Shown here: positions 432-57,124 of the stretch, piece by piece
How positions within the stretch are numbered: position 1 is the first letter of the stretch
Layout: the number at the start of each line of letters is the position of its first letter
Assembly: GCA_963724695.1 (NCBI GenBank)
Contig: CAVRVW010000003.1
Location: 557,767 to 621,766, forward strand
DNA: 64,000 bases
Origin: an uncultured Acidobacteriota bacterium
GTDB lineage: Bacteria; Acidobacteriota; Vicinamibacteria; Vicinamibacterales; CAVVIG01
Direction: 5' to 3'
Position numbers and translations under genes: made by a program
The notes under the pieces: generated by a model
Database searches by the model: none
Told to the model about the DNA's origin: nothing
Seen by the model: only the letters and a program-made list of their open reading frames with translations

Positions 432-434
432 GGC

Positions 435-1635
435 TCAGAGGCCTCCGGGACCGCCGCCGGGGTTCAGAGTGCCGTGCGGATCGAACCGCGCCTTGACGGC
501 CTGCATCAGCCCGAATCCGTTGCCCGCGTCGCCCCAGGGACCAGCCAGCTGCATGACCGTCCGGTTCGCCGCGAGGATGACGGCGCTGCCGCGGCGCGGC
601 TCGACAGCCCGGCGAATCGCCGTGATAGTCCCGGCTTGAGCGTCGTCGGGCCGTCGAGGGCCACGTAGAACACACCCAGGACCGCGTGGCCGGCCGCGCG
701 CCACCGGACACTCTGCGCCCGGGCGCAACGACTGACGATGTCGAGCATGGCGGCGACGTCGGTCGGCAGCACCGCGACCCTCAGGACCGCGTGCCCGTCG
801 CCAGAGGTGCTGCTGGCGCCCCAGATGAGTGCTCTGCGATCGCGCCACGCGGCTGCCTGGAGCGGCTCGTCAACGCGTGCGACCTGGAACCCCGCGTCGA
901 GGCAGAACCTGGCAGCCGCCGACGCCTGGCGGTCGGCCGCCGCCGCAGTGGTTTCGAACCGCAGGAGCAGACGGGGCACGGGGGCGTCGAGTTCGACGGC
1001 GGTCGGCGTGAGTGGCTGCGCCGCCAGCGCGAGTGCGGCCCCGGCAAGCCGGCGGATCCCGTCCGATTCTCCGCCCGCCCACGTGACCGCCATCGTGATG
1101 GCGGCGCGGCAGGGGCACCAGCTTGAAGGTCGCGCGCGTCACCACGGCGAGACAGCCGAAGGATCCGCAGACGAGCCGCGCCGAGATCGTAGCCGGCGAC
1201 GTTCTTGACGACGCGCCCGCCCGCCTTGACCAGGCGTCCGTCGGCGAGCGCCAGATCGACGCCGATGATGAGGTCGCGCGGCGCCCCGTAGCGATGGCGC
1301 GCGGGACCGCTCTCGTTGGCGGCAACCATGCCGCCGATCGTCGACGTGTTCCGGCAGAGGGGATCGAGCGGCAGCCACTGGCCGGCCTGGGCCAGCCGCG
1401 CGTTGACTTCGGCGAGCGTGACGCCGGCCGAGAGCGTGGCCGTCAGGTCGCCGCCGCAGTGCTCGATGTCCCGCGGCAGGCCGGCCAGGGAGAGCATCGC
1501 ATCCGCGCGGGCGGGCGGGGCCCCGCGGCCTCGCCTGGTACCGGCCCCCTGCGGCACGACGGCGAGGCGCTCGTTGTCGCCGCGGCGAGCATGGCCGCGA
1601 GCGTGGCGACATCGCCGGGGCTCGAGGACGGTCAT
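435..1635 (-). pseudogene. glcE: Glycolate oxidase FAD-binding subunit GlcE, multiple frameshifts
   Basis: ATG 1635..1633 overlaps the glcD stop (ATGA). Pieces in three frames join into a GlcE-like protein: MTVLEP(GDVATLAAMLAAA)DNERLAVVPQGAGT...AGVTLAEVNARLAQAGQWLPLDP...VVKNVAGYDLG|RLVCGSFGCLAVVTRATFKLVPLP|AAITMAVTWAGG...VLGVFYVALDGP|...GLMQAVKARFDPHGTLNPG. Frame changes fall near 1617, 1575, 1190, 1105 and 655. Confidence 0.8.
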
Positions 1636-3109
1636 CAGAATCGCTCGGCCAGGCCGGCGCGCTCGAGCGGATGCGCGCGATAGGGACCGGGCACCTCGCC
1701 GCAGAGCCGCGGCGTGGGAAACACCTTGCCCGGATTGCAGAGCCCGGACGGATCGAAGGCGCAGCGCACGCAGCTGCATCGTGTCGAGGTCGTCGGCGCT
1801 GAACATCTCGGCCATGTACGCCTTCTTGTCGACACCGACGCCGTGCTCGCCGGTGATGCTGCCGCCCGCCTCGATGCAGTAGGTCAGGATCTCGGACGCG
1901 ACCTCTTCGGCGTGCTCGGCCTGGCCGGGCATCGGACTCGTCGTAGCAGATGAGCGGGTGCAGGTTGCCGTCGCCGGCGTGGAAGACGTTGCCGATGCGC
2001 AGCCCGGACCGTCGCTTCGAGCTCGCGGATTCGGCGCAGCACTTCAGGCAGCCGGGTCCGCGGCACGACGCCGTCCTGCACGTAGTAGTTCGGGGAGACG
2101 CGGCCCATGGCGGCGAAGGCCGCCTTGCGGCCCTTCCAGATCCGCTCGCGCGCGGCCGCGTCGCGCGCGATTTCGATCGTCGACGCGCCAGACTGCCGGC
2201 AGACCGTCTCGACGAGGGCGAAAAGCTCGTCCACTTCCTCGCGCGGACCGTCGAGCTCGACGATCAGGACGGCGTCGGTGCGCGGAAAACCAGGGTGCAC
2301 GGCGGCCTCGGCGGCGTCGATCGTCAGCCGGTCCATCATCTCGACGGCGGCCGGCACGATCCCGCACGCGATGATGGCCGAGACCGCTGCGCCTGCCGCA
2401 TCGATGGTGTCGAATCCCGCCAGCAGCGTCAGGACGGCTTCGGGCCGCCGCAGGATGCGCAGCGTGGCCTTGGTGACGACCGCCAGCGTGCCCTCCGAGC
2501 CGACCAGCACGCCGAGCAGATCGAGCCCGGGCGCATCGAGGGCTCCGCCGCCGAGCTGCACGATCTCGCCGTCGGGCAGCACCGCCTCGACGCCGAGGAC
2601 GTGGTGCACGGTGAAGCCGTACTTCAGGCAGTGCGCGCCGCCGGAGTTCTCGGCGATGTTGCCGCCGATCGAGCAGACGATCTGGCTCGAAGGATCCGGC
2701 GCGTAGTAGCACCCGAAGGGCGCGACCGGCGCGTGATCTCCGAGATTGGTGACGCCGGGCTCGACGGTGATGCGGTAGTTCGGGATGTCGACATCGAGAA
2801 TCCGGTTGAGGCGCGACAGCACGATCAGCACGCCGTCGGGCACGGGCAACGCGCCGCCGGACAGACCGGTGCCGTGGCCGCGCGCGACGAAGGGCACGCG
2901 TTCTGCCGTGGCAGAGCCGGACCACGGCCTGAACCTCGGCGGCCGACGACGGCAGCACGACCGCGCCTGGGATGGCGCGCAGGTGCACGAGCGCGTCGGA
3001 CTCGTAGGTCAGCAGGTCCGCCGTGTCGGTCAGGAGACCACGCGGCCCGACGCAGCTCGCGGAGCCGCTCCAGGAACGCCCGGTCAACGTGGCGGAAGGA
3101 GTCGGTCAT
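1635..3109 (-). pseudogene. glcD: Glycolate oxidase subunit GlcD (FAD-linked oxidase), multiple frameshifts
   Basis: ATG 3109..3107 overlaps the stop of the upstream gene (ATGA). Joined pieces: MTDSFRHVDRAFLERLRE|VGPRGLLTDTADLLTYESDAL..AAEVQAVVRLCHG|VPFVARGHGTGLSGGALP...SIGGNIAENSGGAHCLKYG...LPEVLRRIRELE|GLRIGNVFHAGDGNLHPLICYDES|GQAEHAEEVASEILTYCIEAGGSITGEHGVGVDKKAYMAEMF..DTMQL|CAFDPSGLCNPGKVFP. Frame changes fall near 3055, 2900, 2000, 1932 and 1770. Confidence 0.85.
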
Positions 3110-4347
3110 TCGTTGAGCTGGGGGATGATCCGCAGCCCCGTTGGGGCAAGCGGTGGCCCGACCACGCGAAGAATCGACCCCGCATAGTTCACGATGAACA
3201 GCTCGCCGTCGGAATCGACACCGAACGACGACACGTTGCCGAGGGTCGCGCGGCCGCCGAGCATCGCCGTGTGCTCGATGAGATCCGAGGCCGTGGCCTC
3301 GCCGCCGCCGCCGACCGTGAGGGCAACGGACCAGACGCGACCCGACACGAAGTCCGCGAAGAAGTAACGCCGCGGTAGCCGGCGCCGAGCCCTTGCCCAC
3401 GGTACACGTATCCGCCTGTGACCGACGCGCCCGAAGATCGGTCGTACTCGAACATCGGATCGACCAGCGGGCCGAACGCCGGCCCCGGCGAGGTCACGTT
3501 GTTGTGGGCGCCTTCGCGGTTGGACCATCCGTAGTTGCGGCCGCCGCGGCCGGCGGGCTCGTAGTCGATCTCCTCCCACGCGCCCTGGCCCACGTCGCCG
3601 ATGATCAAGGCGCCGGTGCCGCCGCGCGCCGGGTCGTCGAACGAGTACCGCCACGGATTCCGCAGGCCGAAGCTCCAGATCTCGGGCAGAGTGCCCGCCG
3701 GGCCCGCGTTCACGAACGGATTGCTCGGTGGCACCCAGTACCCGTTGGGATCGTCGACGTTGACGTTGATGTCGATGCGCAGCATCTTGCCGAGCAGCTG
3801 CGTTGGGTTTTGTGCCCGGTGTTGCGGATCGTTGCCGGCGCCGCCGTCGCCGAGGCCGACGTACAGGAAACCGTCCGGGCCAAACGCCAGGTGTCCGCCG
3901 TTGTGGTTGGCGAACGGCTGGTCGATGATCCTCGTCGAACCGCCCCAGCGAAGATCGAGCCTGGACGCCGCGTCGGCGACCAGCGGATTGGCCGAACGCG
4001 TGAACCGGGCGACCACCGTGTCCCCCTGCACGTTGGTGAAGTTGACGTAGCACCAGCCGCTGGACGCGTAGTTGGGGGCGAGGGCCATCCCCAGCAGGCC
4101 CTGCTCCCCGCCCGAGACGGACGGATCCGCGGAGGTCGAGAAAGTCCTGCGCCAGCACCGTGCCCGCCGAAACGACGCGGATGCGCCCGCCCTGCTCGAC
4201 GACGAACTGCACGTTGCGGTTGGTCGGATCCTGCACGATCGCCACGGGCAGCGAGAACCCAGAGGCGTACACCGACGCGCCGATGGGCTGAGCACCGGCT
4301 GCGGAAGGCCATAGCATCGCGACGAGGAGACACGCCAAGGCTCGCAT
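3106..4347 (-). pseudogene. Secreted PQQ-dependent (sorbosone/glucose-type) sugar dehydrogenase, two frameshifts
   Basis: ATG at 4347 is followed by the signal peptide MRALACLLVAMLWPSAAGAQP. Motifs present: EQGLLGMALAPNY, ANHNGGHLAFGPDGFLYVGLGDGG, WSFGLRNPWRYSFD, GGYVYRG and YFFADFVSGRVW. Frame changes fall near 4145 and 3370. Confidence 0.75.
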
Positions 4348-4377: not shown

Positions 4378-5835
4378 TTGCGCTATCATCGGGGCACCGT
4401 GCCGAGGCGACCCCGATGGACGTTCGTCGCCGCGTGGCTCGCGCTCGCGTGTCTGCCCCTCGTTGCGTGCACCGGAGGCGACGGCCCGCCGTCTGCGCCT
4501 GTGCCTGGACCCGGCGGCGGCGTTCAAGTGAACGGCACCGAGCGGATGGGGTGGGAGCAGCCCGCGCCGAGCTTCGCCGAACTGCAGACCTACGGCTATC
4601 TCGCCTACGTGGACGATGTCCCTGTGGGCCTGCCGGGGGTGACCTGCGAGTCAAGTCCAGGCGTCAACGGCTTTCTCTGTTCGGCGCGCTTGCCGCCGAT
4701 GACGCCAGGTCTCCACATGATCGCGCTGTCGGCCTACGTCGATCGAGGCAGCCGGTGGGAGGGTCCAAAGTCCGCTCCGCTGCAGGTACGGCTCGTGACG
4801 ATGGCCACGAGCGTCGTCCCCACGACAGCCGACGCCGGCACCGGCACCCTGGTTCGACGCCTCACGACGCTCGACGGTGTCTTGCTTCAAGCCCACGTTG
4901 TGGCATCGGGGCTCGTGGACCCCACGGACCTGGTCGTCGTGCCCGATGGCCGCGTGCTGGTCGCCGAGCGCGCCGGACGCGTGCGCGTGTTCCGTGACGG
5001 GCAGCTGGCCGATCGACCGGCGCTGGTCTTGAGCGACGTCGAGGGTCCCGACGCAGGGGAGCTCCTCGCGCTCGCGATCGATCCAGAGTTCCAGGAGACC
5101 GCAGCCGTTTATGCCGTGTACACCACGCCGGCAGGGTTCCGGCTGGCGCGTTTCCACGCGGTGGGCGACGTGCTGCGCGATCGCGCCATCCTTCTCGACG
5201 GTGTCGAGGCCGGCGATGCCCGTCCCGGCGCGGCGCTCAGGGTCGGGCCCGACCGCAAGCTGTACGCCGCCTTCGACGACGGCGGCGATCCACACAAGGC
5301 GGGGGATCTCGGGGCGTTCAGCGGGAAGGTGCTCCGGCTCAATCTCGATGGCACCACGCCCGCTGACCAGCCAGGGAGCACGCCGGTGCTGGCTGCCGAC
5401 ATCAACCGGCCCAACAGCCTCGACTGGAGTCTCGATGGCGCGACCCTGTGGGTCGGCGAACGTGATGCGGATGGCGCGGATCGACTGAACGTGATGGTCG
5501 CGGGAGCCCCCGGGGCTCCAGGCGTTATCGGCCCCGAAGCAAGGCCGGCGATGGCGCGCCGATACACGCTGCCGCAGGGCACCGGCGCCAGGGGTGCGGT
5601 TTTCTACTGGGGGCCGGCGATTCCAGCGTTCCAGGGCGATCTCTTCGTAGCCGCGGACACGGCCCGCGCGCTTCTTCGCGTGAGGTTCGAGAGTCCAGGC
5701 TCGAACACGATTGCAGCCACGGAGTGGATCCTGCGCGACGAGCTCGGCCCGATCCGCGGGGTCGCCGTCGCTCCGGACGGCGGCTTGTACTTCTGCACGG
5801 CGGACGCGCTCCTTCTCATCACGCCAGAACGGTAG
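4378..5835 (+). CDS. Lipoprotein with a PQQ-dependent sugar dehydrogenase-like beta-propeller
   Basis: Intact 485-aa ORF. It has a lipobox-like N-terminus (WLALACLPLVAC). Motifs LVDPTDLVVVPDGRVLVAERAGRVRVF, ELLALAIDPEF and FDDGGDPHKAGDLGAFSGKVLRLNLDGT resemble the SGL/sorbosone dehydrogenase fold. The start is uncertain (TTG 4378 or GTG 4399). Confidence 0.65.
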   Translation: MRYHRGTVPRRPRWTFVAAWLALACLPLVACTGGDGPPSAPVPGPGGGVQVNGTERMGWEQPAPSFAELQTYGYLAYVDDVPVGLPGVTCESSPGVNGFLCSARLPPMTPGLHMIALSAYVDRGSRWEGPKSAPLQVRLVTMATSVVPTTADAGTGTLVRRLTTLDGVLLQAHVVASGLVDPTDLVVVPDGRVLVAERAGRVRVFRDGQLADRPALVLSDVEGPDAGELLALAIDPEFQETAAVYAVYTTPAGFRLARFHAVGDVLRDRAILLDGVEAGDARPGAALRVGPDRKLYAAFDDGGDPHKAGDLGAFSGKVLRLNLDGTTPADQPGSTPVLAADINRPNSLDWSLDGATLWVGERDADGADRLNVMVAGAPGAPGVIGPEARPAMARRYTLPQGTGARGAVFYWGPAIPAFQGDLFVAADTARALLRVRFESPGSNTIAATEWILRDELGPIRGVAVAPDGGLYFCTADALLLITPER

Positions 5836-6867: not shown

Positions 6868-9800
6868 CTATCGGATCGTACCGACGCCGATCGCGTCCTT
6901 GATGAACGCGTGCTCCGCCCGGTGGAGGGTGACGAGGAAGGCTTCGGGCGTCTCGTCGGCCGCGTCCGGGAGGACGCGGACGGCGATGGTGCGGCTGAGC
7001 GCGCCCGCCGGGATGACGAGCGTCAACGGCGGACTCGGGGGGACGCCGATGTAGTCCGCGCCGGCGCGTGCGGTGAGGTTGCTGGTCGAGTAGCTCACCC
7101 GCACATCGCGCTCCGACGGGCTGGACAACCGCACGGTGAAGAGGAAGTCGGCGGTGCCTGCCGGCGGCTCGGACCCTGCGGCGTTGTCGATCGACAGAAA
7201 CGCGAAGTCGTCGTCGAGGATCGTCGCGCGGCCCCTGGGATCGCCGAGCTGGGCGCCGGACGGGTTCGACAGGTCGAGGAAGAACGTCTGGTTGTCCTCG
7301 GCGATGCGATCGCCGCTGATCGGCACGAGCACCGTTCTCTGAATGGTGCCGGCGGGGAAGGACAGCGTTCCGGCGGTCGCCACGTAGTCCGAGGCCGCGA
7401 GTGCTGTTTCGTCAGCCGTGCCGAAGTCCACCTTTACTTCCTGCCCGGACGCGCGCGAGAGCCTGACCGAGAAGACCGCGTTGCGCGTGCCCGATGCGCC
7501 CTCGACGACGACCGTGTCGGAGACGAAGAGGCCCGGGAACGAGTCGTTGTCCACGATGGTGCCCACCGCCTGCCCATCGTCGATGAGGGCATTCGACGCG
7601 CCTGACAGCGTCACGAAGAAGGTCTCTGCCGCTTCGCTGAGCCGGTCCCCGGTTATCGCCAACGAGAGCGTCTGCGTCAGGGTTCCCGGGGGGAAGGTCA
7701 GCACGCTGGGGGGAAGCGGCACGTAGTCCACCTGCGCCGCCGCCGTGCCGCCACTCGACTGCGCCGTCACCGAGACCGTCTCGATCGAAGCGACCGACAG
7801 CGAGACCGTCAAACTCGCGGCGACCGACCCCGCGTCGCCTTCGACGATGCTGACGTCGCCGATCCTGAGTCCGGGCGCGACGCTGTGCGTGAGGCTTCCC
7901 GAGCTGGTCACGAAATCGTCGGCGCCGGTGTAGACCGCCGTGACGAGGTGCTGTCCGAGCGAGAGCGACGAGGTGGCCAGGTTTGCGCGGCCGCCCGCGT
8001 CGAGAGGCACCGGGGCGCCAAGCGCCGCCCCTCCCTCCTCGAATCGCACGGCGCCATCGGTGACGGGTCCGCCGTTGCCGGTCACGAGCGCCGTCAGGGT
8101 CACCGGTTGGCCGAAGGCCGACGGGTTCCGCGACGCCGAGAGCACCGTGGCCGTCGCCGCCGGCGCGGGCAGCGTGAAATAGGCGACGAGCGGGTCGTGA
8201 TCGGACAGCCGCGACGCAGGCGTCGCCGCATTGGTCCGGTTCGACTCCGCGAAGTCCGCGTCGATTCTGGCGAACTGGATGCCGCCCGCGCTCAAGTACG
8301 GCAGGAGCGCCTGGCTCACGAGGGCGTGATCGAGCACCTGGGCGCTCCCCCGGAAGACGTAGGAGTACCGGTCGGAGGGCGGGACCAGATCGACGAGGTT
8401 GACGAGGTCGGGCTCCACGAGATCCGCGCTCGGGAGCATGACGGCCGAAGCCGGTGTCGGCTGCCCCTTGATCGTGCCGATGACGTCGACGTAGCCGTCG
8501 TTGAACTGGAAGGCGTTGTAATCGCCGATCGAGATGATCCGCTCGGCCGGATTGGCGGACTGGCGCGCCTGAAGGAGGTTCGCCAGGAACTCGGCCTGCG
8601 CGCGGCGCTTGGTGCGCACCCTCTGACCATCGACCGGATCGTCCACGCCGCTGAGGGATCGCAGGTGATTGACGATCACGGTGACCGGGAACGGCGCGCC
8701 ACCCGGGCGCGGCGCCGTCGCGCGCAGGACCAGCGGCGGACGGTCGTTGAGCGTCTCGAGGACGCCCGTGCCGGGATTGGCAAACGTCGCCGTCCGACCT
8801 TCCTGCACGACATCGATCACCGATACCCGCGAGGACTTGACGAGGAAGCCCACGTCGATGCCGCCGATGTCGTTGCCCTCCTCGAGGTACGCGACGTACC
8901 CGGGGTTGGGTGCGCCCCCGGCGGCCGTGTCGTCGTTGATGCGATCCGCGAGCGCCTGCAGCGTCGCCAGGTTCTCGACTTCCTGCAGGCCGATGATGTC
9001 CGGCGACCGGAGCATGGCCCGCACGATGAGCGAGGCCTTTCTCAACCGGGCTTCGAAGGCCGCCGGCAACAGGACCGGCTCGCCGCTGCCCACCGCGGGG
9101 TCGTTCGCAGTGTCGAAGAAGCGCTGCAGGTTGAACGACGCGACCGTGAGCTCGTCCTGGCTGGGCGCGCGGACAGCCGACGGCGCCGCCCCGCGTCTCG
9201 CGACGACGAGCGGTGTGACCGGATCCTGGAGGATCGTGTACGTGCGCCCGGCGAAGTCGAGCGGGCCCACCGCGCCATTGACAACGTCGCCGGCCGAGAC
9301 CTCCAGCGTCCCCGCCGGGCCGACCTGGCCGTTGCTGTCCACCGCCAGCCGCTCCGGATTGCCGTCGAATCGCGGGGTGGAGGGGGCTCCTGCGGGCAAC
9401 GGCTCGGGGCGTTCCAGGCCAGGCTCGCGGAACGGGCGCGCCACGCCCGTAATGACCGCGCCGAAGACGCCCGTGCTCGCCACGACGCCGGTCGGCTCGA
9501 CCAGCGAGCCCTGCGTCGCCTGTGTCACGGTCAGCGCGCTCGCCTGGACGCGCATTCCCTCGAACCGCTCGAGCTGTTCCAGCCCGCCGCCCGGTTGTGT
9601 GTTCGCCGCGGTCAGGAGGATCGGTGCCGGCAGCACCAGCCCCGTGGCCAGCCCGGTGACCGTGGCGTTGACCAGCTCGGTCTGCGGCGGGCTGCCGGGA
9701 TCGGATGTCGGCACGAACTCGGCGACCGTGCCGACGACGTCCACGAGATTTCCGACCGCCGCGGCCGATGGAATGGCGTTGGCGCTCGTGAACACGAACA

Positions 9801-27761: not shown

Positions 27762-28796
27762 ATGAAGTACAGAGTGCTGGCTGATACGGGAGTGTTCGTC
27801 TCCGAGCTCTGTCTCGGCGCGATGACGTTCGGTGGCCGCGGGCAGATGTGGGAAGTGATCGGTGGCCTCGATCAGGCCGGCGCTGACGCCATCATCGGCC
27901 GTGCGCTCGACGCGGGGATCAACTTCATCGATACGGCCGACGTGTACGCGACCGGGGAGTCCGAGACGCTGGTCGGAAAGGCGCTTTCCGGGAAGCGCAG
28001 GCAGGTGGTGCTCGCGACGAAGGTGCGCGGACGCATGGGTTCGGGACCGAACGATGTCGGGCTCTCGCGACTGCATATCGTGGAGGCTGTGGACGCGAGC
28101 CTGAAACGGCTGGGGACCGACTACATCGACTTGTACCAGATTCATCGCGCCGACCCCCTGACGAACATCGAGGACACGCTCCGCGCGCTCGACGATCTGG
28201 TGCGCTCGGGCAAGGTCCGATACATCGGGTGCTCGAACCTGGCGGCCTGGCAGTTGATGAAGGCGCTCGGCATCGCGCGCGCCGAAGGCCTCGAGCGCTT
28301 CAAGTGCACACAGTCGTACTACTCGCTCGCCGGAAGAGAGCTCGAGCGCGAGATGATCCCGCTCCTGCTGGATCAGGGCGTGGGCCTGCTGGTCTGGAGC
28401 CCTCTGGCGGGAGGTTTCCTCTCGGGAAAATTCTCCCGTGGGGGCACCGATGCCACGGGCCGCCGCGCCAGCTTCGACTTTCCGCCGATCGACAAGGATC
28501 GGGCCTACGACATCGTCGACGTGATGCGGACCGTCGCCGGCGCGCACGGCGCGAGCGTCGCCCAGGTCGCCCTCGCGTGGCTGCTCGCGCAGCCTGCGGT
28601 CTCGAGCATCATCATCGGCGCGCGGAAGCCCGAGCAGCTCGACGACAATCTGAAGTCGATCGACCTCGTCCTGTCTCCGGACGAGTTGAAGGCCCTCGAC
28701 GAGGCGAGCCGCCTCAAGGTCGAGTACCCCGTCTGGATGGATGCTTTCCCATCCGACCGCCGGCCGGGGGAGGAGCGCAGGTTCGAGCGCCGGTGA
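27762..28796 (+). CDS. Aldo/keto reductase
   Basis: The sequence starts MKYRVLADTGVFVSELCLGAMTFGG and includes NFIDTADVY, DYIDLYQIHRAD, VRYIGCSN and SIIIGARKPEQL. Confidence 0.9.
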   Translation: MKYRVLADTGVFVSELCLGAMTFGGRGQMWEVIGGLDQAGADAIIGRALDAGINFIDTADVYATGESETLVGKALSGKRRQVVLATKVRGRMGSGPNDVGLSRLHIVEAVDASLKRLGTDYIDLYQIHRADPLTNIEDTLRALDDLVRSGKVRYIGCSNLAAWQLMKALGIARAEGLERFKCTQSYYSLAGRELEREMIPLLLDQGVGLLVWSPLAGGFLSGKFSRGGTDATGRRASFDFPPIDKDRAYDIVDVMRTVAGAHGASVAQVALAWLLAQPAVSSIIIGARKPEQLDDNLKSIDLVLSPDELKALDEASRLKVEYPVWMDAFPSDRRPGEERRFERR

Positions 28797-28799
28797 TTG

Positions 28800-28877
28800 C
28801 CGGGTCCAAAAGGACCCGGCCTACGTTGTCGGACGCGGCAGACGAAGCATCGTAGGGCGGGTCCTTTCGGACCCGCC
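28800..28877. repeat. REP/BIME-like inverted pair (two GTAG-headed hairpin units)
   Basis: On the + strand, CCGGGTCCAAAAGGACCCGG-CCTAC (28800-28824) is followed by 27 nt, then GTAGG-GCGGGTCCTTTCGGACCCGCC (28852-28877). It starts 4 nt after the AKR stop. Confidence 0.85.
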
Positions 28878-28882
28878 GGCAG

Positions 28883-28920: not shown

Positions 28921-29979
28921 ATGCCGAGATCCCTCCTGCCGTGCGGATTGGCCATCACCCTTCTTGTTGCCGGCGCGCCGCCGGTCGCCGGCGGCCAGGA
29001 TGCTGGCGACGGCCCTCACCTCAAGCCCGATACGTTGATGGCCGAAGCTCAGGCGCTTTTGGAGTCGGGCCGCCCGCTCGACAGCGAGCGCCTGCTCGAA
29101 AGGGCCGTCGTCAGGCGGCCGCTCGCGGTGCCGGAGTTGCCGGACCGATCGTCCGCGCTGGCAGTGCTGTACTTGCGCGTGCGGGCGCGCGTGCTGCCGG
29201 TGATGGCCGAAACGTTGTACGGCTCCGCGAAGGCGGCGTACGACGAAGGCCGGCTGGATCTCGCCTCGACCCAGTTCGACGAGCTGCGCCGTCTGGTCGA
29301 CAGCGCCGGTCCGCGGATCGACGGAATGAACGATCTCGGCATGCTCGCCGAGGGTTTCTCGAGGCTGATCCGCCGACGGCTCGAGCCCAGGCCCGCGGAG
29401 ATTCCGCTCGAGCACGTCAGCGTCGACGTCGAATCACCCGGGGATGCGCCATCGAACGAGCCGCCCGCGCCACTTCTCGAAGCGACCTCGGAGCCGCAGC
29501 GACTTGGGCCGGACCTCAAGCCCTTCGCGTCCTGGCGCCCGGCCATCTATGGTCCAGACGATGCTGACGTGACACCGCCCGGAACGATCGAGCAGACGCT
29601 GCCACCGTGGGTGGCTCCCGAGGGGTTTGCGCGCCGCACGTTCAAGGGGCTGCTGGCGGTGGTCGTGGGTGAAGACGGCCTTGTGGCGTCGGCTGAGATC
29701 GTCGAACCGACGTTTCCGGCGTACGACGCCGTGCTCCTGACGGTCGCCAGGCGGTGGCGCTACGAGCCTGCGGGCAAGGACGGGCGCGCAGTGCGCTTCC
29801 GGAAGCTCATCGCGACCCGCAGAGCGGCTTTCAGTTCGGGTAGCCGCCGGTCCTTGGTCCTTGGGTCTTCGTCCTTGGGCAGGCCTTGGTCCTTGGCGGC
29901 TTGGTGTGTGGTCGTGGCGCCTGCAGCCCAAGGACGACAGCGGCTTTTCACGTGCTACACGATTGTGAAAAGCGGTTAG
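28921..29979 (+). CDS. Secreted TonB C-terminal-domain-like protein
   Basis: The signal peptide is MPRSLLPCGLAITLLVAGAPPVAG. The C-terminal block FKGLLAVVVGEDGLVASAEIVEPTFPAYDAVLLTVARRWRYEPAGKDGRAVRFR resembles TonB_C. The last ~45 codons read through the GTCCTT array and a hairpin. The true stop may be the TAG at 29841-29843 in another frame. Confidence 0.55.
   Translation: MPRSLLPCGLAITLLVAGAPPVAGGQDAGDGPHLKPDTLMAEAQALLESGRPLDSERLLERAVVRRPLAVPELPDRSSALAVLYLRVRARVLPVMAETLYGSAKAAYDEGRLDLASTQFDELRRLVDSAGPRIDGMNDLGMLAEGFSRLIRRRLEPRPAEIPLEHVSVDVESPGDAPSNEPPAPLLEATSEPQRLGPDLKPFASWRPAIYGPDDADVTPPGTIEQTLPPWVAPEGFARRTFKGLLAVVVGEDGLVASAEIVEPTFPAYDAVLLTVARRWRYEPAGKDGRAVRFRKLIATRRAAFSSGSRRSLVLGSSSLGRPWSLAAWCVVVAPAAQGRQRLFTCYTIVKSG
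29848..29905. repeat. GTCCTT short tandem array (second locus)
   Basis: Sequence: CGGTCCTTGGTCCTTGGGTCTTCGTCCTTGGGCAGGCCTTGGTCCTTGGCGGCTTGGTG. It belongs to the same unit family as 15881-15985. Confidence 0.8.
29943..29973. terminator. Hairpin between convergent genes (possible bidirectional terminator)
   Basis: A 9-bp stem GCTTTTCAC / GTGAAAAGC encloses a 13-nt loop. There is no clear U-tract outside the stem. Confidence 0.3.
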
Positions 29980-31209
29980 CAGACTTCCCGGGAGGGCGAG
30001 GACGACCCGGCGCCGTGTCAGGTCCGCAATCTCCGGCACCAGACGACCCTCGGTCAGCGCCGTCATCGCGGCGCGCGAAACCGTCACCGTCTCGGGCAGA
30101 TATGCGCGGCACGCGCCGAACTCATCTTCGTAGACGGCCGAGGGGAACGTGAGGCGCAGACGCACCTGGTCCCCTTCCGGCTCGGCGACGTAGAGCGGAT
30201 TCAGCGTGAGAACCCCTGGCGTGAGCGACGGCTGAATCGCATGCGGTTGGAAGATCTCGGGGAGCGCGCTGGCCACCACGACGAGCGCCGGGTCGGCGTC
30301 GAGCGTAGCCGCGGAGTCCTGGCGGGCGAGGTCGAGGGGCCCACCGCGCACGACATCGGCGAACAGGCCTGCCTCGCCGAACACGTGCGCTGGCATTGTG
30401 TCGAACAGGTCGGCATACCCGCTGGGTGAGAGCGGTTGTCCGTGCGAAGGGCTCCACACCAGCAGGTTGTGCGCGTGGCTGATCATGGCGGCGCTCGGGG
30501 CGCCGGTGTCCAGCAGGCGAAGCATCTCGGCCACGAACCGCCGCTTGTTCCAGATGAACATGAACGCGTCCGCGCACATGGCGAAGCGAAAGACGCCGCG
30601 GGCGAAGGGCAGCGGATGGTTGCCGTTGCAGCAGACGGCTTCGCATCCAGGCGCGACGAAACGGCGCGCCAGCCACAGCTTGGAGAAATAGACGTCGGCG
30701 AGGAACGGCGCCGAGGGCGTCAGCGCGCTCAACTCCCTGGTCAGATGGCCGGACCCTCCGCAGATGTCGATCGCCCGTCCGCCGCCGGCGAGCGTGGCGG
30801 CGCCGATCGATTGCACCAGCGCCTGCGCCACGACGAAGCTCGGGTCAGAGAAGCGGTGGACGAAGTACGTGCCCTCGAGATCGAGACCGAGCGCGGCGAC
30901 GGCCTCACGATAGGTGGTCGAGTCGCACAGCGCGAGCGCGTCGAACCGCGCCGCCTGGGCCGCATCGAGCGCGAGCAGCGCCCCTCGTGCCAGATCGGGA
31001 CGCCGATTTTCGAGGTGCGCGAGGACCGCCGGGACGGGGTCGGCCAGATGCAGGATGGGGATGCCATCGACGACCGGAAACGCGGAGCACGCGCACCCGA
31101 GCACCCCGCAGGCCATCTCGCGATCGTGCGGGTCGGTCTGGACGTGATGGGGTGTGAGCCGCCCTCCACAGAAGGGACACCGGAGGATCTCGAGCGTGTC
31201 CAGGCGCAT
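29976..31209 (-). CDS. Trm112-like zinc-ribbon plus class I SAM-dependent methyltransferase
   Basis: The N-terminus is MRLDTLEILRCPFCGGRL...GCACSAFPVVDGIPIL. The SAM motif is AIDICGGSGHL. The in-frame ORF has no stop until 29434 and would be antisense to the TonB-like gene. The probable end near the TAA at 29978..29976 needs a frame change, so the 3' end is uncertain. Confidence 0.65.
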
Positions 31210-31257: not shown

Positions 31258-31659
31258 ATGTCATCCGGCGCGCCGACGTCCAGTGAAGGGGGATTCGTGT
31301 TCTGGGACTTGTTCCAGCAGTACCAAATCGGACAACTCGACGAGCAGTTGGCAATGGCGCGCTCGGACGCCGCGGCTCAGGGCGGGACGCGGATGGCGAC
31401 CAGGGCTGTGGACGAACGGGTCGACCGTCTCGTGCTCATGTGCCATGCGCTTTTCGAACTCGTACAGGAGTCGACGGGCATCACCGAGGAGCAACTCAAG
31501 GCGAAGATCGTCGAGGTCGACATGCGGGACGGTACCGCCGACGGCAGGCTGGCGCCCAAGCCCAGGCGGTGCCCGAAATGCGACGCCATGATCTCGCCCA
31601 AATTCGGGCGGTGCCTCTTCTGCGGGCAACAGGACCCTGCGGCGCCCGTTGTTCGCTGA
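31258..31659 (+). CDS. Small protein with a C-terminal zinc ribbon, function unknown
   Basis: The C-terminal motif is CPKCDAMISPKFGRCLFCG. An alternative start GTG 31297 follows GAAGGGGG. Confidence 0.55.
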   Translation: MSSGAPTSSEGGFVFWDLFQQYQIGQLDEQLAMARSDAAAQGGTRMATRAVDERVDRLVLMCHALFELVQESTGITEEQLKAKIVEVDMRDGTADGRLAPKPRRCPKCDAMISPKFGRCLFCGQQDPAAPVVR

Positions 31660-31661
31660 GC

Positions 31662-31778
31662 GGCGGGTCCAAAAGGACCCGCCCTACGCCCAGGCTCGTG
31701 GGCCGGGTCCTACCGGCGGGTCCCAAAGGACCCGCCCTACGCCTGAGGGTTCGTAGGCCGGGTCCTTTCGGACCCGGC
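31662..31778. repeat. REP/BIME-like cluster (three full units plus one truncated)
   Basis: Full units lie at 31662-31687(-), 31715-31740(-) and 31753-31778(+). A truncated head plus left arm, GTGGGCCGGGTCC, lies at about 31698-31710. The cluster starts 3 nt after the stop at 31659. Confidence 0.85.
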
Positions 31779-31925: not shown

Positions 31926-34583
31926 ATGTCGAGCAGCGCGGACTCCGTCAGCCACGAAGGATCGCACCTCTGGACGCTCGAGGAGATCGGCAGGCTGACG
32001 TCCCACAGCGGCAACCACGCCGACACGCTCTCGAACATCGTCAACCTTATCCAGCAGCGCTTCGGCACCGACGTGTGCTCGGTGTACTTGCTGGAGCCCG
32101 ACCGCGCGAACCTCGTGCTCGCGGCCACCATCGGACTGCGGCCCGAAAGCGTGGGCCGCGTGCGCATGCGCCTCACCGAGGGGCTGGCTGGCCTGGTGGC
32201 CGAACAACTGCGCCCGCAGGTGCTGGCTGACGCGACGACGCATCCGCGTTTCAAGTACTTCCCCGAGGCAGGCGAGGACCCGTACCGGTCGTTTCTGGGT
32301 GTGCCGGTCGTCGATCGCGGCGTCCTGCAGGGCGTCCTCGTCGTGCAGACCGTCGAGCCGCGAGCCTTCGACGCCGACGACGTCCGGATGTTCGTGACGG
32401 CGGGCGCCCAGTTGGCGCCGCTCGTGAGCGAGGCCAGGGCGCTCGGGCAGTTTGTCGCGCCCGCGCATCAGCGGCTGCGCACGCTCGCCCAGAACCTCTG
32501 GTGGAGCTGGGATCACGAGGCGACCAGCCTGTTTCGAGAGCTCGACCCGGTGCTTTGGCGCGAGCTCGACAGCAATCCGATCGCGCTCCTCGATCGGGTC
32601 CCGAGCGACACGCTCGAGGAGCGGGCGTCGCACCTCGCGCTGCACGGCCGCATCAACTACGCCTACCGCCGGATGCACGAGTACTTGCGGTCCAAGCGGA
32701 CCTGGGGCGCACGCCACGCCGGTGTCCTGTGGGCGAGGCCTGTCGCGTACTTCTCGGCCGAGTTCGGCCTCCACGAGTCCATGCCGATCTACTCGGGCGG
32801 GCTGGGCATTCTCGCGGGCGACCACATCAAGGCGGCGTCCGACCTGGGCATCCCGCTCGTCGGCGTGGGTCTCTATTACACCCAGGGCTACTTCCGGCAG
32901 CGGCTGGACCGCGAGGGCTGGCAGCACGAGGAGTACATCGACGTCGACAGCCGGCGGCTGCCGCTCGAGCTCGCGAAAGCCGACGGCGAGCCGATCTCGA
33001 TTGCGATCGACACCCGATCGGGGACGCTGTCGGCGCGCGTCTGGAAGGTGGCGGTCGGCCGCAGCACGCTGCTTCTCCTCGACTCCAACGTCGAGGGGAA
33101 TCAGCCCGAAGATCGCCAGCTCACGTCGCGTCTGTACGGAGGCGACGATCGCGTGCGCATCCGGCAGGAGCTGCTCCTCGGCGTGGGCGGCGTCCGCGCC
33201 CTGCACGCGCTTGGCATCAGGCCCGGTGTGGTGCACCTCAACGAAGGGCATTCGGCGTTCGCCGCGCTGGAGCTCGTGCGGATTCGCATGGAGGAGGAGG
33301 GGCTGGACGCGTTCGAGGCGACGCGGCGCGTGTCGTCGCAGATCGTCTTCACGACGCACACGCCGGTGCCCGCCGGCCACGACCGCTTCAGGTCGCACCT
33401 GGTCGAGGAGCATCTCGGCCCGCTGCGCGAGGCGCTGCACATCAGCCACGACGACCTGATGAACTTCGGACGCGTCAGGGCCAACGACGCGGGCGAGGAC
33501 TTCTGCATGACCGTCCTGGCCCTGAAGCTCTGTCGTCGGGCCAATGCCGTGTCCTCGCTCCACGGCGAAGTGTCGCGCGCGATGTGGACGCCGCTCTTCC
33601 CCGGCTACCGCGAAGACCATGTCCCGATCGGGCACATCACCAACGGCGTGCACGTCCAGACCTGGCTCGCCCCGCAGATGCGGCAGGTGTACGATCGCCA
33701 TCTCGGCGCTGACTGGGCCGGACGCGCGGGGGAGCCGGGCTTCTGGGAAGCGATCGACAGCGTCGACGATGGGGAGTTGTGGGAAACCCATCAGACGCTC
33801 AAGGCCAGGCTGATCGAGTTCGCCAGACGCCGTGCGGTGCATCAAGCCGGGCTCCGGGGCGAATCGGCGGATCACATCGCGCAGCTCCGACGCGCGCTCA
33901 GCCTGGACGCGCTCACGATCGGGTTCGCACGCCGGTTCGCCACCTACAAGCGCGCCAACCTGATCCTGCAGGACCTCGAGACCATCGCCAGCCTGATCAA
34001 CCACGCGCAGATGCCCGTGCAGTTCGTGTTTGCCGGCAAGGCGCACCCGCACGACAGCCCAGGCAAGGAAGTGCTCCAGCAGATCGCGCAGCTGATGCGG
34101 GATCCGCGGTTCGCGGGAAAGCTCGTGTTCATCGAGGACTACGACATCAGCGTCGGCCGGCACCTGGTGCAGGGCGTCGACCTGTGGCTGAACAACCCGA
34201 GGCGCCCGCTCGAGGCCTGCGGCACGAGCGGCCAGAAGGTCGTGCTGAACGGCGGGCTGAACCTGTCGGTGCTCGACGGCTGGTGGGCCGAAGCGTACGA
34301 CGGCTTGAACGGCTTCGCGATCGGCGTTGGACACACGCACCGCGCCACGGACCTGCACGATCGCCGGGACGCCGAGGCGCTGATGCGCGCGCTCAGGGAC
34401 GAAGTGATTCCCCTCTACTACAACCGCGACCGCGACGGCCTGCCGCGCGAGTGGATCGCGCGCATGAAGCGCGCAATCCGGACCTTGGGCTTCCGCTTCA
34501 GCGCGGACCGCATGGTCAAGGATTACGTCCGGCAGTGCTACGTGCCCGCCGCCGGCGGCACGAGCTGCGACCTCAAGGAGTAG
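31926..34583 (+). CDS. glgP: Alpha-glucan family phosphorylase with an N-terminal GAF-like domain
   Basis: ATG 31926 follows GGGAGG. The GAF-like N-terminus is VCSVYLLEPDRANLVLAATIGL...GLAGLVAEQLRP...FLGVPVVDRGVLQGVLVVQT. The DUF3417 motif LWWSWDHEA follows. The phosphorylase core includes AYFSAEFGLHESMPIYSGGLGILAGDHIKAASDLG and EACGTSGQKVVLNGGLNLSVLDGWW. Confidence 0.85.
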   Translation: MSSSADSVSHEGSHLWTLEEIGRLTSHSGNHADTLSNIVNLIQQRFGTDVCSVYLLEPDRANLVLAATIGLRPESVGRVRMRLTEGLAGLVAEQLRPQVLADATTHPRFKYFPEAGEDPYRSFLGVPVVDRGVLQGVLVVQTVEPRAFDADDVRMFVTAGAQLAPLVSEARALGQFVAPAHQRLRTLAQNLWWSWDHEATSLFRELDPVLWRELDSNPIALLDRVPSDTLEERASHLALHGRINYAYRRMHEYLRSKRTWGARHAGVLWARPVAYFSAEFGLHESMPIYSGGLGILAGDHIKAASDLGIPLVGVGLYYTQGYFRQRLDREGWQHEEYIDVDSRRLPLELAKADGEPISIAIDTRSGTLSARVWKVAVGRSTLLLLDSNVEGNQPEDRQLTSRLYGGDDRVRIRQELLLGVGGVRALHALGIRPGVVHLNEGHSAFAALELVRIRMEEEGLDAFEATRRVSSQIVFTTHTPVPAGHDRFRSHLVEEHLGPLREALHISHDDLMNFGRVRANDAGEDFCMTVLALKLCRRANAVSSLHGEVSRAMWTPLFPGYREDHVPIGHITNGVHVQTWLAPQMRQVYDRHLGADWAGRAGEPGFWEAIDSVDDGELWETHQTLKARLIEFARRRAVHQAGLRGESADHIAQLRRALSLDALTIGFARRFATYKRANLILQDLETIASLINHAQMPVQFVFAGKAHPHDSPGKEVLQQIAQLMRDPRFAGKLVFIEDYDISVGRHLVQGVDLWLNNPRRPLEACGTSGQKVVLNGGLNLSVLDGWWAEAYDGLNGFAIGVGHTHRATDLHDRRDAEALMRALRDEVIPLYYNRDRDGLPREWIARMKRAIRTLGFRFSADRMVKDYVRQCYVPAAGGTSCDLKE

Positions 34584-47941: not shown

Positions 47942-48017
47942 GTCCCCATCGTCCAGAGGCCCAGGACGTGGCCCTTTCAAGGCCAAAACACGGGTTCGAA
48001 TCCCGTTGGGGACGCCA
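47942..48017 (+). tRNA. tRNA-Glu (anticodon TTC)
   Basis: 76 nt. The acceptor stem is GTCCCCA/TGGGGAC and the D arm is GTCC-AGAGGCCCA-GGAC. The anticodon arm is TGGCC-CTTTCAA-GGCCA. The T arm is ACGGG-TTCGAAT-CCCGT, with an encoded G-CCA end. It is very close to E. coli tRNA-Glu. Confidence 0.95.
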
Positions 48018-48117
48018 TACCTCGGGAATCAAACGTCCGCCGAAACAGTCCGTTCAGCATGCCTTCGCCACGCGCACGCCAGCGATGGCGTCCGAGCGGT
48101 TCAAGACTGCGTCTTTA

Positions 48118-48125
48118 TGTATACA
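48118..48125. promoter_or_regulatory. Perfect 8-bp palindrome TGTATACA upstream of the PadR gene (possible operator)
   Basis: It ends 14 nt upstream of the proposed PadR start, in an AT-rich patch. The operator role is inferred only from position. Confidence 0.2.
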
Positions 48126-48139
48126 CTGTAGACACTACG

Positions 48140-48466
48140 GTGGACATTCCGGGCCCGTTTGAACAAGCCGTTCTGGTCGCCCTCCTCCGACTGGGCAAGG
48201 ACGCTTACGGTCGGGCGATTCTGAACGAAGTCCAAGAGCGCCTCGAGCGCGACGTGTCAGCCGGTGCAGTGTACGCGACGCTCGAGCGCCTCGAAGCCAA
48301 GGGGCTAGCCTCCTCAACATTGGCGCCGGGAACGGCGATTCGAGGCGGGCGCGCACGGCGCTATTTTGCTCCTACCGCCGCCGGCATTCGGGCGTTGAAC
48401 CATGCCAAGTCGGCGAACGACACGATGTGGCGCGGTCTCGTCTGGCCGCTGAAGGTGCGAACATGA
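48140..48466 (+). CDS. PadR-family transcriptional regulator
   Basis: The sequence is FEQAVLVALLRLGKDAYGRAILNEVQERLERDVSAGAVYATLERLEAKGLASS. The start GTG 48140 is tentative. The stop overlaps the next ATG (ATGA at 48463). Confidence 0.8.
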   Translation: MDIPGPFEQAVLVALLRLGKDAYGRAILNEVQERLERDVSAGAVYATLERLEAKGLASSTLAPGTAIRGGRARRYFAPTAAGIRALNHAKSANDTMWRGLVWPLKVRT

Positions 48467-49053
48467 GCGACGCTCAAGCGAATCCGCCGCACTGGGCCTC
48501 CACACTCCTCACCGCGCTGTTGAGGCCGTCCGATTCCGAGTCAACTCCGGGCGACCTGCTCGAGGAGTATCGAGACGTCAGGCGCCCGTCCCTTGGGCAG
48601 CTTCGCGCTGACGCTTGGTACATCAAGCAGGTGCTCAGTGTGTTCTGGCGTCTGTTGTGGCCGTGGGTCGTCGTGATTGCCGTGCTGAGGGTTCTCGCGT
48701 TTCCCCTTCCAGGCGCATGGAATCCCAGTCTTGTGCCGGCGCCCGGAGTGTCACTTCTGGATGCCTTGATCCTCCTGGCAGCCGGGTATTACGGCTCACA
48801 ACGGAGCGGACGACTCAGCACCGGTATCGTCATTTCGAGCGCAACAAGCTTCGTCGGCTTCACGACATTTTTCATCTATGCGGCTGCTAGCGCTCCGAGC
48901 CTTCTTCTTGCGCCGTTCGAGAAGCCGTTCATCTTTGTGATCATGTCCATTCTGCTGGCAATGGCACTCGGCTTTAGTCTTGTCCTCGGGACAGTGGGTG
49001 CCGCCGTAGGCTGCTGGCTGCCACCCACTCGACTGAGGGCTCGCCTGTCCTGA
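48463..49053 (+). CDS. PadR-associated membrane protein
   Basis: The N-terminus PGDLLEEYRDVRRPSLGQLRADAWYIKQVL is typical of PadR-linked permease-prefix proteins. Four hydrophobic helices follow. Confidence 0.6.
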   Translation: MSDAQANPPHWASTLLTALLRPSDSESTPGDLLEEYRDVRRPSLGQLRADAWYIKQVLSVFWRLLWPWVVVIAVLRVLAFPLPGAWNPSLVPAPGVSLLDALILLAAGYYGSQRSGRLSTGIVISSATSFVGFTTFFIYAAASAPSLLLAPFEKPFIFVIMSILLAMALGFSLVLGTVGAAVGCWLPPTRLRARLS

Positions 49054-49350
49054 CGTCGACTGCGTTCGCTGGGTAGTGGTTCAGTTTGACCGGGCAGTCC
49101 CCGAGGTTCGCAGTCGCCCTGGTCGAGTTTCTACGGACCAGCTGGCCTGCGAGGCGGTTTCCCGCGCCGGTAGAATCGTCTTCCTCGACAAACCGGAGCC
49201 GTGACGCGGGCATATAATCGCCTTCGTGGCGCGGATGTGCGCCGAAAGTGTGAGGGCAGCGGTGATCGGCACGCCTGATCTGCAAGCCGCCTTACCAGTC
49301 GACGACCAATCCGCGGCACGCGAACAATCCGATGTGATTGGAGGACCGTC

Positions 49351-50985
49351 GTGAACCGACTCTCTGGAACCAATATGTGGATTCGCGATCTCGAGACCCC
49401 CGCAGGTCTCGATGTCAACGATGCGGCACCGGCCGTACGCGACGCGTCTTCCCGCGAAGACGTTCAGCTCGTGAGAACAGCGCTGTCGAACTTTCTGTTT
49501 CCTGATGACGAGGGAAGTTTCCACGACATCATTCGTGACATCGCTCTCGACGAACAGGAACAGGGGACGGGACTCGAGGAGCCCATGACGCCGGTTGAGC
49601 CCGCACCTGGCGAAGCAGGCCGCCGGCTTCTGACTGGCTCGAGCCATCACCTCTCGCAACCGCACTCAGCTGTCGTCGTCTACGATGCGGTCGCGGTCCC
49701 TGACAGGGATTCTCTGGCGTCGGAGGATCTACGCGCGCTGGTCCGCCCGATCCGGATTGCCATCGGGCAAGCGACCAGTGAGACGGACGCCCTTCAGTCC
49801 GACTTGCGCCAGCTTCGCGAGGCCAGCGCACGGCTCGCTGAGGAATACCATCGGATTGACACCGGGTGCCGCGAGACTGAAGAACGCAGCACGATGGTGG
49901 CCGCAGCCATCAACGACCTCGAGCGACGACTCGGCCCGCTTGAGAGGCTTCGCGACGCCAGCGCACAGCTCGCTGAGAATTACCATCGGATTGACACCGG
50001 GTGCCGCGAGACTGAAGAACGCAGCACGATGGTGGCCGCAGCCATCAACGACCTCGAGCGACGACTCGGCCCGCTCGAGAGGCTTCGCGACGCCAGCGCA
50101 CAGCTCGCTGAGGATTACCATCGGATTGACACCGGGTGCCGCGAGACTGAAGAACGCAGCACGATGGTGGCCGCAGCCATCAACGACCTCGAGCGACGAC
50201 TCGGCCCGCTGGTCGCCGCACTGAATCAGCGTCGCCGAAGAGGTGATGCGCCACGCGAACGCCTTCGGCGCTCAGAACGACAGAATCGATCACGTCACCG
50301 AGCGTGTGGCCGCATTGGAGACACGGATCGTGACGCTGACTGAAAAAGACGAGCGGCTCGGGCGAAGACGATCTGAAATTGAGACTTCGATGTCGAAAGC
50401 GCTTGCCGTGACACAGGCATCGGTCGCCCGAACATGGCGCCGCATTCAGATGACGACGCAGCCGATGCGACGTCGGGGAGCGGTTGTTGGCAGCCTCAGC
50501 GTAGTGGCGTTTAGTTGCCGTTATCGCGATGCTGCTCAGTGGACCAGCCTACATCGCCATTTCTGCGCGCATCGACCCGCAGCCGGCGCTGGCGGTCTCG
50601 GATTCTGTCCCGCCCATTGGAACATTGCCCTTCTCCCCAGTTCCGGCAATCCACGCGACCCGGATCGTCAGCACAACGCCGACCAAACAGCCTGTTCAGA
50701 ACGCACAATCTGCGGGGGTGCGGGTCCCCATCGTCAACGTGCGGTCGGCAATGGGCGAGGTCGCAATTCGTTGGAGCGCTCGTCGTGCGATCAGAGCCGG
50801 TCGGCGCAGCCGTCTTCATCAATCAGCGGCTTGTCGGAGAAACACCGCTTCAACTGACGGGACTGCGCGCAGGTTCACACGCCGTTCGTATCGAGCGGGA
50901 GGGATACGAGCGCTGGACAGTCGCCGTGCTCGTCCCGGCGGACAAACAGGCACTTGTGCAAGCCAAGCTTCAGCCACGTCGCTGA
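49351..50985 (+). pseudogene. Coiled-coil repeat protein with a TM helix and a C-terminal PEGA domain, 3 frameshifts
   Basis: GTG 49351 follows GGAGG. Three 45-aa repeats are followed by a heptad-like segment in another frame (VAEEVMRHANAFGAQNDRIDHVTERVAALETRIVTLTEKDERL). A TM helix follows (LVAVIAMLLSGPAYIAI), then PEGA (ALVVRSEPVGAAVFINQRLVGETPLQLTGLRAGSHAVRIEREGYERW). Frame changes fall near 50230, 50500 and 50760. Confidence 0.6.
49812..50210 (+). repeat. Near-identical 135-nt tandem repeat, about 2.95 copies, in frame
   Basis: Unit starts are at 49812, 49947 and 50082. The unit encodes LRDASAQLAE(E/N/D)YHRIDTGCRETEERSTMVAAAINDLERRLGPLER. Only a handful of substitutions separate the copies. 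Confidence 0.95.
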
Positions 50986-51033
50986 AGAGGTCGCGGGTGG
51001 TAGAGGCTGTGGCCAAAACGGCTCGCGCTGCGA

Positions 51034-57074: not shown

Positions 57075-57098
57075 CAAGTAACCTTCCGCGGCAGGACA

Positions 57099-57124
57099 GC
57101 CGGGTCCGAAAGGACCCGGCCTAC
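57099..57124 (-). repeat. REP-like unit (single copy)
   Basis: On the + strand the sequence is GCCGGGTCCGAAAGGACCCGGC-CTAC. It lies 25 nt after the stop at 57074, between convergent genes. Confidence 0.8.

Follow-up and report, generated by a model that had tools for sequence, protein, structure and literature searches.

GTAG-footed REP palindromes in a Vicinamibacterales genome and their probable link to a RAYT transposase kept by its relatives

Among the described REP systems, the RAYT-REPIN systems of group 3 or subclass 2.5 in Pseudomonas, Xanthomonas and Stenotrophomonas (GTAG-1-type; PMC3116915, PMC6006769, PMC8266576) have short REPs with a perfect stem and a 5' GTAG, and RAYTs of about 150-160 aa flanked by their cognate REPs. 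Strand-specific loops and GTAG-dependent cleavage have been reported for these perfect-stem "group 3" REPs (PMC8266576). The REP/BIME elements of E. coli and their TnpA-REP enzyme (YafM; PDB 4ER8; PMC3333891, PMC3479197) also have a GTAG foot, hairpins and a REPtron, although in E. coli a bulge makes the palindromes imperfect and the enzyme belongs to RAYT group 2 (DHLH / WE / YIHYNP). Alternation of Y and Z types is known from E. coli BIMEs, and Di Nocera et al. (PMC3733652) speak of "heterodimers". For GTAG REPs, units arranged head-head, tail-tail or as heterodimers have been described, as well as convergent and unidirectional placement (PMC3733652), and so have REPtrons and the co-evolution of REP and RAYT (PMC3333891, PMC6006769, PMC3116915).

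Copies inside genes are also on record. Intragenic GTAG REPs have been reported from Opitutus terrae, Thauera and others (PMC3733652), and together with GTAG/CGTC REPs the palindromic elements of Rickettsia (R. conorii; PMC3733652) provide examples of in-frame gene copies, although the Rickettsia elements have no known dedicated transposase. From Acidobacteria, two published surveys report Y1 systems of atypical kinds only, either class 3 or associated with TIRs (PMC6006769, PMC3733652). These class 3 TnpA-Y1 or "TIRYT" systems, described from Solibacter usitatus and Koribacter versatilis (PMC6006769, PMC3733652), combine a Y1 enzyme with repeated secondary structures, which lie on its flanks and may number in the hundreds, but these structures are atypical (long TIRs or a CnGA foot) and the Y motif of the enzyme is Y----Q. 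A full-text literature search for REP elements in Vicinamibacter gave no match.

Here we describe a palindromic repeat present in 6 full copies at 3 sites of the window, which is the whole 64-kb stretch of DNA analysed (67% G+C). Very probably these repeats belong to a GTAG-tagged REP family specific to Vicinamibacterales (soil Acidobacteriota) that occurs as monomers, as inverted heterodimers of the BIME/REPIN kind and as larger clusters, and that spreads by a RAYT mechanism. Compared with the class 3 systems of the same phylum, the REP is a canonical GTAG REP and the associated enzyme of relatives carries YIVANP.

The repeat has the consensus (Y)GTAGG-S-CGGGTCC-YTTY-GGACCCG-S-C, with a unit of 26 nt that falls within the 20-40 nt palindromic stem-loop expected of a REP. 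An initial annotation of this DNA had listed six full copies and a truncated one, and a pattern search allowing up to 3 mismatches to GTAGGSCGGGTCCYTTYGGACCCGSC recovered exactly the six, against 0 in 100 shuffles that preserved dinucleotides; the truncated copy, GTGGGCCGGGTCC, is present too. Five of the six full copies match the consensus perfectly, and the copy at 31715-31740 has one mismatch. All of them have a perfect 9-bp stem and a 4-nt loop, where the initial annotation had given stems of 8-9 bp and a 3-nt loop at 31715; the loop there keeps its 4 nt and carries one substitution (CAAA/TTTG). The first copy begins at 28799 and not at 28800. The conserved GTAG ahead of each unit stands for the full copies, but the head of the truncated copy is GTGG. 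These dimensions differ slightly from those of the S. maltophilia REP, which has an 8-bp stem and a 3-nt loop, and the stems are perfect, unlike those of E. coli.

Folded as single-stranded DNA, the window units reach -12.3 to -12.7 kcal/mol each (z about -6 versus shuffles), and the doublets can alternatively fold as a single long imperfect hairpin. No further copies, half-copies with a partner or other GTAG-footed hairpins were found in the 64-kb window, and a scan of the whole window at Rfam gathering thresholds returned tRNA only, with nothing at the REPs. The coordinates of the window features, together with those of in-gene copies in relatives, are collected in the table.

Table. Positions of the REP copies, polymorphic segments and neighbouring genes in the window, and of genes with REP-derived inserts in related contigs
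Sequence	Feature	Coordinates	Strand	Remarks
Window	Aldo-keto reductase gene, upstream of doublet 1	27762..28796	+	context
Window	REP copy, stem type C (GTAGGCCGGGTCCTTTTGGACCCGGC)	28799..28824	-	2 nt past the aldo-keto reductase stop codon
Window	78-nt segment, both REPs and spacer	28803..28880	.	exactly missing from L115 and L116
Window	Spacer of doublet 1, 27 nt	28825..28851	.	core GACGCGGCAGACGAAGC, also in the 96%-identical relative L119
Window	REP copy, stem type G (GTAGGGCGGGTCCTTTCGGACCCGCC)	28852..28877	+	GTAG-inward heterodimer with 28799-28824
Window	Small conserved ORF, upstream of cluster 2	31258..31659	+	called as a 120-aa gene in relatives; context
Window	REP copy, type G	31662..31687	-	2 nt past the stop of the conserved 120/133-aa ORF
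Window	53-nt segment	31692..31744	.	in the window and L123; missing in L119, L122 and L124
Window	Truncated REP, head GTGG and type C left arm	31698..31710	+	
Window	REP copy, type G	31715..31740	-	one loop substitution (TTTG), loop 4 nt
Window	REP copy, type C	31753..31778	+	GTAG-inward heterodimer with 31715-31740, spacer 12 nt
Window	GAF-domain glycogen/starch phosphorylase gene, downstream of cluster 2	31926..34583	+	context
Window	Single REP copy, type C	57099..57124	-	convergent intergenic gap
L075	DnaE	1-2085		HHH_6 domain 127 aa vs 90-position profile
L090	M13 peptidase	586-2697		N domain 411 aa vs 381
L077	MCC/PCC alpha	2032-3780		ATP-grasp domain split at residue 280
L062	NadE	2550-4298		insert in linker
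L103	ArgRS	2038-4047		insert between N-terminal and catalytic domains
L003	TreS-Mak	274-3708		interdomain insert
L013	DinG-like helicase			interdomain insert
L100	Glycosyltransferase			interdomain insert
L117	MacB	5083-5184		in-frame REP

The full window copies are all extragenic and lie in three intergenic gaps adjoining gene 3' ends, 2-40 nt from a stop codon. This bears out the earlier placement of the loci close behind stop codons, with the stop at 28796 followed by a REP at 28799 and the stop at 31659 by one at 31662. Site 1 is the gap between the aldo-keto reductase gene and a TonB/TPR-like ORF starting near 28921, and site 2 separates the small conserved ORF from the GAF-domain phosphorylase gene. 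Site 3 is convergent, between a plus-strand gene that stops at 57072-57081, depending on the frame, and a minus-strand Vgb_lyase-like gene ending at 57165.

Several gene calls in these surroundings are irregular. The TonB_C-like ORF (28921-29979, +) and a Trm112/methyltransferase ORF (29434-31209, -) overlap by about 500 nt, so that one of the two genes must be shorter than its ORF or frameshifted; in relatives, several short genes are called in the overlap region. The plus-strand gene beside the third REP (55874-57081) shows at least two frame changes, near 56500 and 56750, and the Vgb_lyase-like gene (57165-58489, -) shows one near 57450, which suggests long-read assembly indels or pseudogenes. 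Gene calls are fragmented in the relatives L118 and L119 as well. Elsewhere in the window, G+C drops to 59-64% and the coding signal is weak over roughly 3 kb behind a tRNA gene at 47942-48014 (region 47942-51000), where an ORF for a PadR-family regulator and a coiled-coil ORF lie at 48-51 kb; a check of this stretch for a mobile element, an integrase or a RAYT found none.

The family extends well beyond the window. When species-representative genomes were scanned with a pattern that did not constrain the loop (GTAGGSCGGGTCCNNNNGGACCCGSC), at least 114 DNA stretches from at least 38 assemblies matched, nearly all of them labelled Vicinamibacterales, Acidobacteriota or Acidobacteria, with one Terriglobia. 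BLAST of the window against the 114 loci retrieved gave no overlap, and hence the window's genome is not among the species representatives returned. Three REP-bearing contigs with 63-65% G+C (L072, L093 and L103) come from two MAGs labelled "uncultured Bifidobacteriaceae" and could be mis-binned or mislabelled contigs of Acidobacteriota.

The sequence of the unit is conserved on one strand in particular. GTAGG occupies positions 1-5 in at least 95% of the 218 copies in the position table, and position -1 is Y in 87% of the copies listed there. Stem positions 6 and 25 (S:S) covary, with G:C in 119 of these 218 copies, C:G in 88 and a non-Watson-Crick combination in 11. Read in the GTAG orientation, about 140 of the 169 exact copies among the matches listed have a YTTY loop; because the loop was unconstrained in the search, the loop must be regarded as strand-specific even though the stem is perfectly palindromic.

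Placement in relatives was assessed with gene calls from a crude home-made codon-log-odds predictor, which called just 71% of the window coding. The relatives' loci amount to 846 kb, 84% of it predicted coding, and carry 196 copies in 114 blocks from at least 38 assemblies. Fully outside predicted CDS lie 145 of these 196 listed copies (74%), against an expectation of 16% (binomial p = 8e-74). Among the matches listed, REPs occur in 31 of 91 convergent gaps (34%), in 55 of 403 tandem, or co-directional, gaps (14%) and in 6 of 95 divergent gaps (6%), so that convergent and tandem gaps are enriched and divergent gaps depleted (chi-square p = 2e-7). The intergenic 3'-end enrichment that had been suggested as a check on the initial annotation is present in these loci of relatives. 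Measured back to the closest stop codon upstream, the listed copies lie at a median of 26 nt. In about 11 of the 196, the preceding gene takes its stop codon from the TAG within GTAG, as does a MacB gene in L125 whose end at 8302 falls within the REP copy at 8299-8324. A bias towards 3' ends would be expected as much from purifying selection that removes insertions in promoters as from a function in RNA.

Neighbouring copies are arranged according to a simple rule. Both inverted pairs in the window have their GTAG heads facing inward, as had been claimed, and combine opposite stem types. This is one of two equally common forms in the family: among the matches listed there are 20 GTAG-inward pairs, with spacers of 4-94 nt, and 21 GTAG-outward pairs, with spacers of mostly 3-7 nt. 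Stem type (G or C) differs in 42 of 45 inverted neighbours and is the same in 28 of 31 direct neighbours (Fisher p = 3e-14, matches listed). The G and C types therefore alternate with orientation as Y and Z do in E. coli, and this heterodimer rule argues that doublets propagate as units. As in BIMEs and REPINs, the REPs of a pair are inverted and separated by a short spacer, and the doublet at 28803-28880 is present or absent as a single piece.

A candidate enzyme is found beside the same repeat in relatives. The 64-kb window itself has no RAYT, as tblastn with the relatives' RAYT confirmed for an earlier claim to this effect. In L048 (JACPZV010000133.1), an ORF of 157 aa (191-664, -) lies between REP clusters. 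It matches Pfam Y1_Tnp (E = 4e-12) and scores 114.7 bits on the NCBIfam model NF047646 REP_Tyr_transpos, "REP-associated tyrosine transposase" (cutoff 80), compared with 37.5 bits on the IS200 model, under the cutoff of 55. In the PDB it is closest to TnpA-REP of E. coli (4ER8), and the alignment places HVH opposite HMH and YIVANPV opposite YIYINPV. The enzyme has 2447 homologues at E <= 1e-5, some of them named RayT by JGI.

This exact REP brackets a RAYT of 157-158 aa on both sides in four related contigs (L048, L117, L125 and L126), which are therefore REPtrons and which supply, for relatives, the Y1 transposase flanked by inverted copies that the initial annotation had proposed to look for. 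The enzymes of L117, L125 and L126 are 74-78% identical to that of L048. Relative to the gene, REPs upstream are mostly in plus and those downstream mostly in minus orientation, with up to 8 copies per side. L117 and L125 share the neighbourhood Sortilin/BNR - RAYT - metallophosphatase - MacB, and in L048 a Sortilin/BNR-like ORF apparently lies beside the RAYT, judged by eye from the translation. Such a pattern fits a single-copy, vertically inherited gene. The RAYT does not fit an IS200/IS605 insertion sequence, a multi-copy element with its own tnpA between unlike left and right subterminal hairpins: it occurs once among the 114 REP-bearing blocks listed, in a conserved host neighbourhood and with an IS200 score below the cutoff.

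RAYTs about 60% identical to the L048 enzyme, in L120 and L121, have another, though related, REP on their flanks, GTAGGSCGGGTKCCGCGMAGCGGAMCCCGSC, whose stem is longer (L120 2790-2950 and 3480-3510; L121 3625-3770); this variant was sought in the window and not found. The pairing of a diverged RAYT with a variant REP indicates that enzyme and repeat diverged together. By its motifs (DHVH / WQ / YIVANP), its 157 aa and its short perfect REP, the RAYT resembles subclass 2.5, which is group 3 of Bertels (Table 1 of PMC6006769), and the resemblance suggests a putative affiliation. The published motifs of subclass 2.5 are DH[LF]H / WQ / YI[VI]ANP, and the Vicinamibacterales enzyme differs in having V as the middle residue of HUH. 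The size of the enzymes and the cognate REPs on their flanks are alike in both, and doublets, clusters, a location at intergenic 3' ends and vertical inheritance are common to both. The hosts differ, as subclass 2.5 has been reported mostly from Xanthomonads and Pseudomonads. A RAYT is presumably present in the window's own genome too.

Some copies lie within genes. None of the six window copies is intragenic. In the relatives, about 15-20% of the listed copies are inside predicted genes, and many of these have a positive coding score on both sides in the same frame. The inserts comprise roughly 9-35 aa and are situated in loops or linkers, with Pfam domains on both sides or within a domain that is stretched (see the table). 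When the L077 protein is compared with MCC alpha of P. aeruginosa (3U9S), a 20-aa insert appears directly before FYFLEMNTRLQVEH. The REP unit is open in 5 of its 6 frames, which read VGRVLSDP, RAGPFGPA, GGSERTRP, AGPKGPAL and RVRKDPPY, and the sixth holds the TAG; peptides of four of the open frames, or close variants, are present among the in-gene copies. In this respect the relatives of the window organism resemble the bacteria with in-frame palindromes mentioned above.

Closely related metagenome contigs show that the window copies are polymorphic. L115 (JGI) and L116 (Logan) encode an aldo-keto reductase protein identical to that of the window and are 99.9% identical to it upstream and 98.7% downstream of doublet 1. 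Both lack exactly the 78-nt segment, with the junction GCCG|AGCTGG and neither a target duplication nor microhomology. In L119 (96% identical) the spacer of doublet 1 is kept between decayed, REP-like flanks, and for this reason doublet 1 is probably ancestral and was probably lost cleanly in L115 and L116. Slippage was rejected as the cause of the loss: acting on the direct repeats GCCGG (at 28799 and 28875), it would have removed 76 nt and left GCCGGCAGCTGG instead of the observed junction. Of the four cut positions that the 78-nt deletion implies, only one comes after CT, the dinucleotide at which characterised TnpA-REP enzymes cut (PMC8266576), and this counts against a RAYT mechanism.

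At locus 2, three and a half copies are present in the window and in L123, compared with two in L119, L122 and L124, and L118 (82% identical) has no REP there. The 53-nt indel (31692-31744) is located between two direct REP(-) copies, and its boundaries can slide within them. Unequal recombination is thus a sufficient explanation at locus 2, where the indel could have arisen through unequal recombination or slippage and without a transposase.

The REP/BIME/RAYT reading of the initial annotation is supported in that all defining features that could be tested were found, namely the hairpin, the GTAG foot, many copies across at least 38 assemblies, the 3' bias, the alternating heterodimers and, in four related contigs, the flanked RAYT. 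Under this reading, one strand, when single-stranded, would form a hairpin whose 9-bp stem is perfect, whose loop is YTTY and whose 5' foot is (Y)GTAGG, and a single-copy, vertically inherited HUH/Y1 enzyme (RAYT/TnpA-REP), its gene bracketed by hairpins of its own type in a REPtron, would recognise the folded strand. By cutting and rejoining beside the hairpin, the RAYT would spread or remove monomers and doublets without target duplications, and we infer that it catalyses the gains and losses seen. Copies would persist where they do little harm, mainly just past stop codons in convergent and co-directional gaps, and occasionally in frame within tolerant protein loops. Those past stop codons would be co-transcribed as stable 3' hairpins and may have a role at the RNA level, such as the protection of mRNA 3' ends.

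A different history for the same elements, in which the REPs were once spread by a RAYT that is now lost or inactive in this genome and change only through host processes (hairpin-stimulated deletion, unequal recombination), would account for the window without a RAYT, for the locus-2 indel sitting between direct repeats, for the decayed look of the locus-1 copies in L119 and for the truncated copy at 31698-31710. We consider it unlikely, because five of the six window copies agree fully with the consensus and the sixth has a single mismatch, the junction left by the 78-nt loss is free of microhomology, and relatives with the identical REP retain an intact, syntenic RAYT. It is far less probable that the hairpins are Rho-independent terminators or 3' mRNA stabilisers that evolved in the host, with a convergent likeness to REPs and no relation to transposition. 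Such an origin would explain stable GC hairpins 2-25 nt past stop codons and the enrichment of convergent gaps, but, reading outward from the stem, neither side has a run of T (positions 27-41 and -15 to -1 in the 218 copies listed), a terminator scan of the window gave no match at the REPs, and near-identical 26-mers across at least 38 species, in both orientations, inside genes and clustered round a transposase gene are not what it predicts. Identity as a Rho-independent terminator was accordingly rejected, as the U/T run after the GC hairpin is missing.

A perfect palindrome of conserved sequence could also be the operator, or binding site, of a dimeric DNA-binding protein that controls a regulon. 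We give this even less credence: divergent gaps, which hold promoters, are depleted (6 of 95 among the matches listed), neither the loop nor the GTAG foot is symmetric, each being tied to one strand, and some copies are found within genes and others in arrays of up to 8 next to the gene for the RAYT. Derivation as a MITE from a classical DDE insertion sequence is the least probable of the readings considered. The repeat is indeed short, multiplied and polymorphic for presence and absence, but empty and filled sites differ by no target-site duplication, there are no terminal inverted repeats besides the hairpin, and the associated gene encodes an HUH/Y1 enzyme and not a DDE transposase. A REP family with a RAYT mechanism is the reading that we retain.

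The features observed have all been described already for GTAG REPs and RAYTs, and the current understanding of REPs is unchanged; the host lineage appears to be new. The results place a canonical GTAG REP and RAYT system in Vicinamibacterales, with the same 26-mer kept across dozens of species-level MAGs. For annotation, it is advisable to mask as REPs both the 26-mers and the clusters that they form, including in-frame copies and TAG stops supplied by a REP, which avoids misreading them as terminators, small ORFs or odd protein insertions.

Whether a REPIN-RAYT system of the Pseudomonas/Xanthomonas type (subclass 2.5-like) is currently active in Acidobacteriota is a more tentative matter, and we put it forward as a possibility somewhat short of an even chance. 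If it is active, whole heterodimers would be excised in natural populations of soil or groundwater, a process suggested by the clean loss of 78 nt among strains of 99.9% identity; a unit open in 5 of 6 frames would colonise loops of essential enzymes as inserts of 9-35 aa; and the GTAG foot would repeatedly supply the stop codon of the upstream gene. Such activity, if true, would carry REPIN biology of the classical kind into a distant phylum that is largely uncultured, and in which population dynamics could be read directly from metagenomes. The strain variants in public metagenomes could serve as a natural data set on the gain and loss of REPINs.
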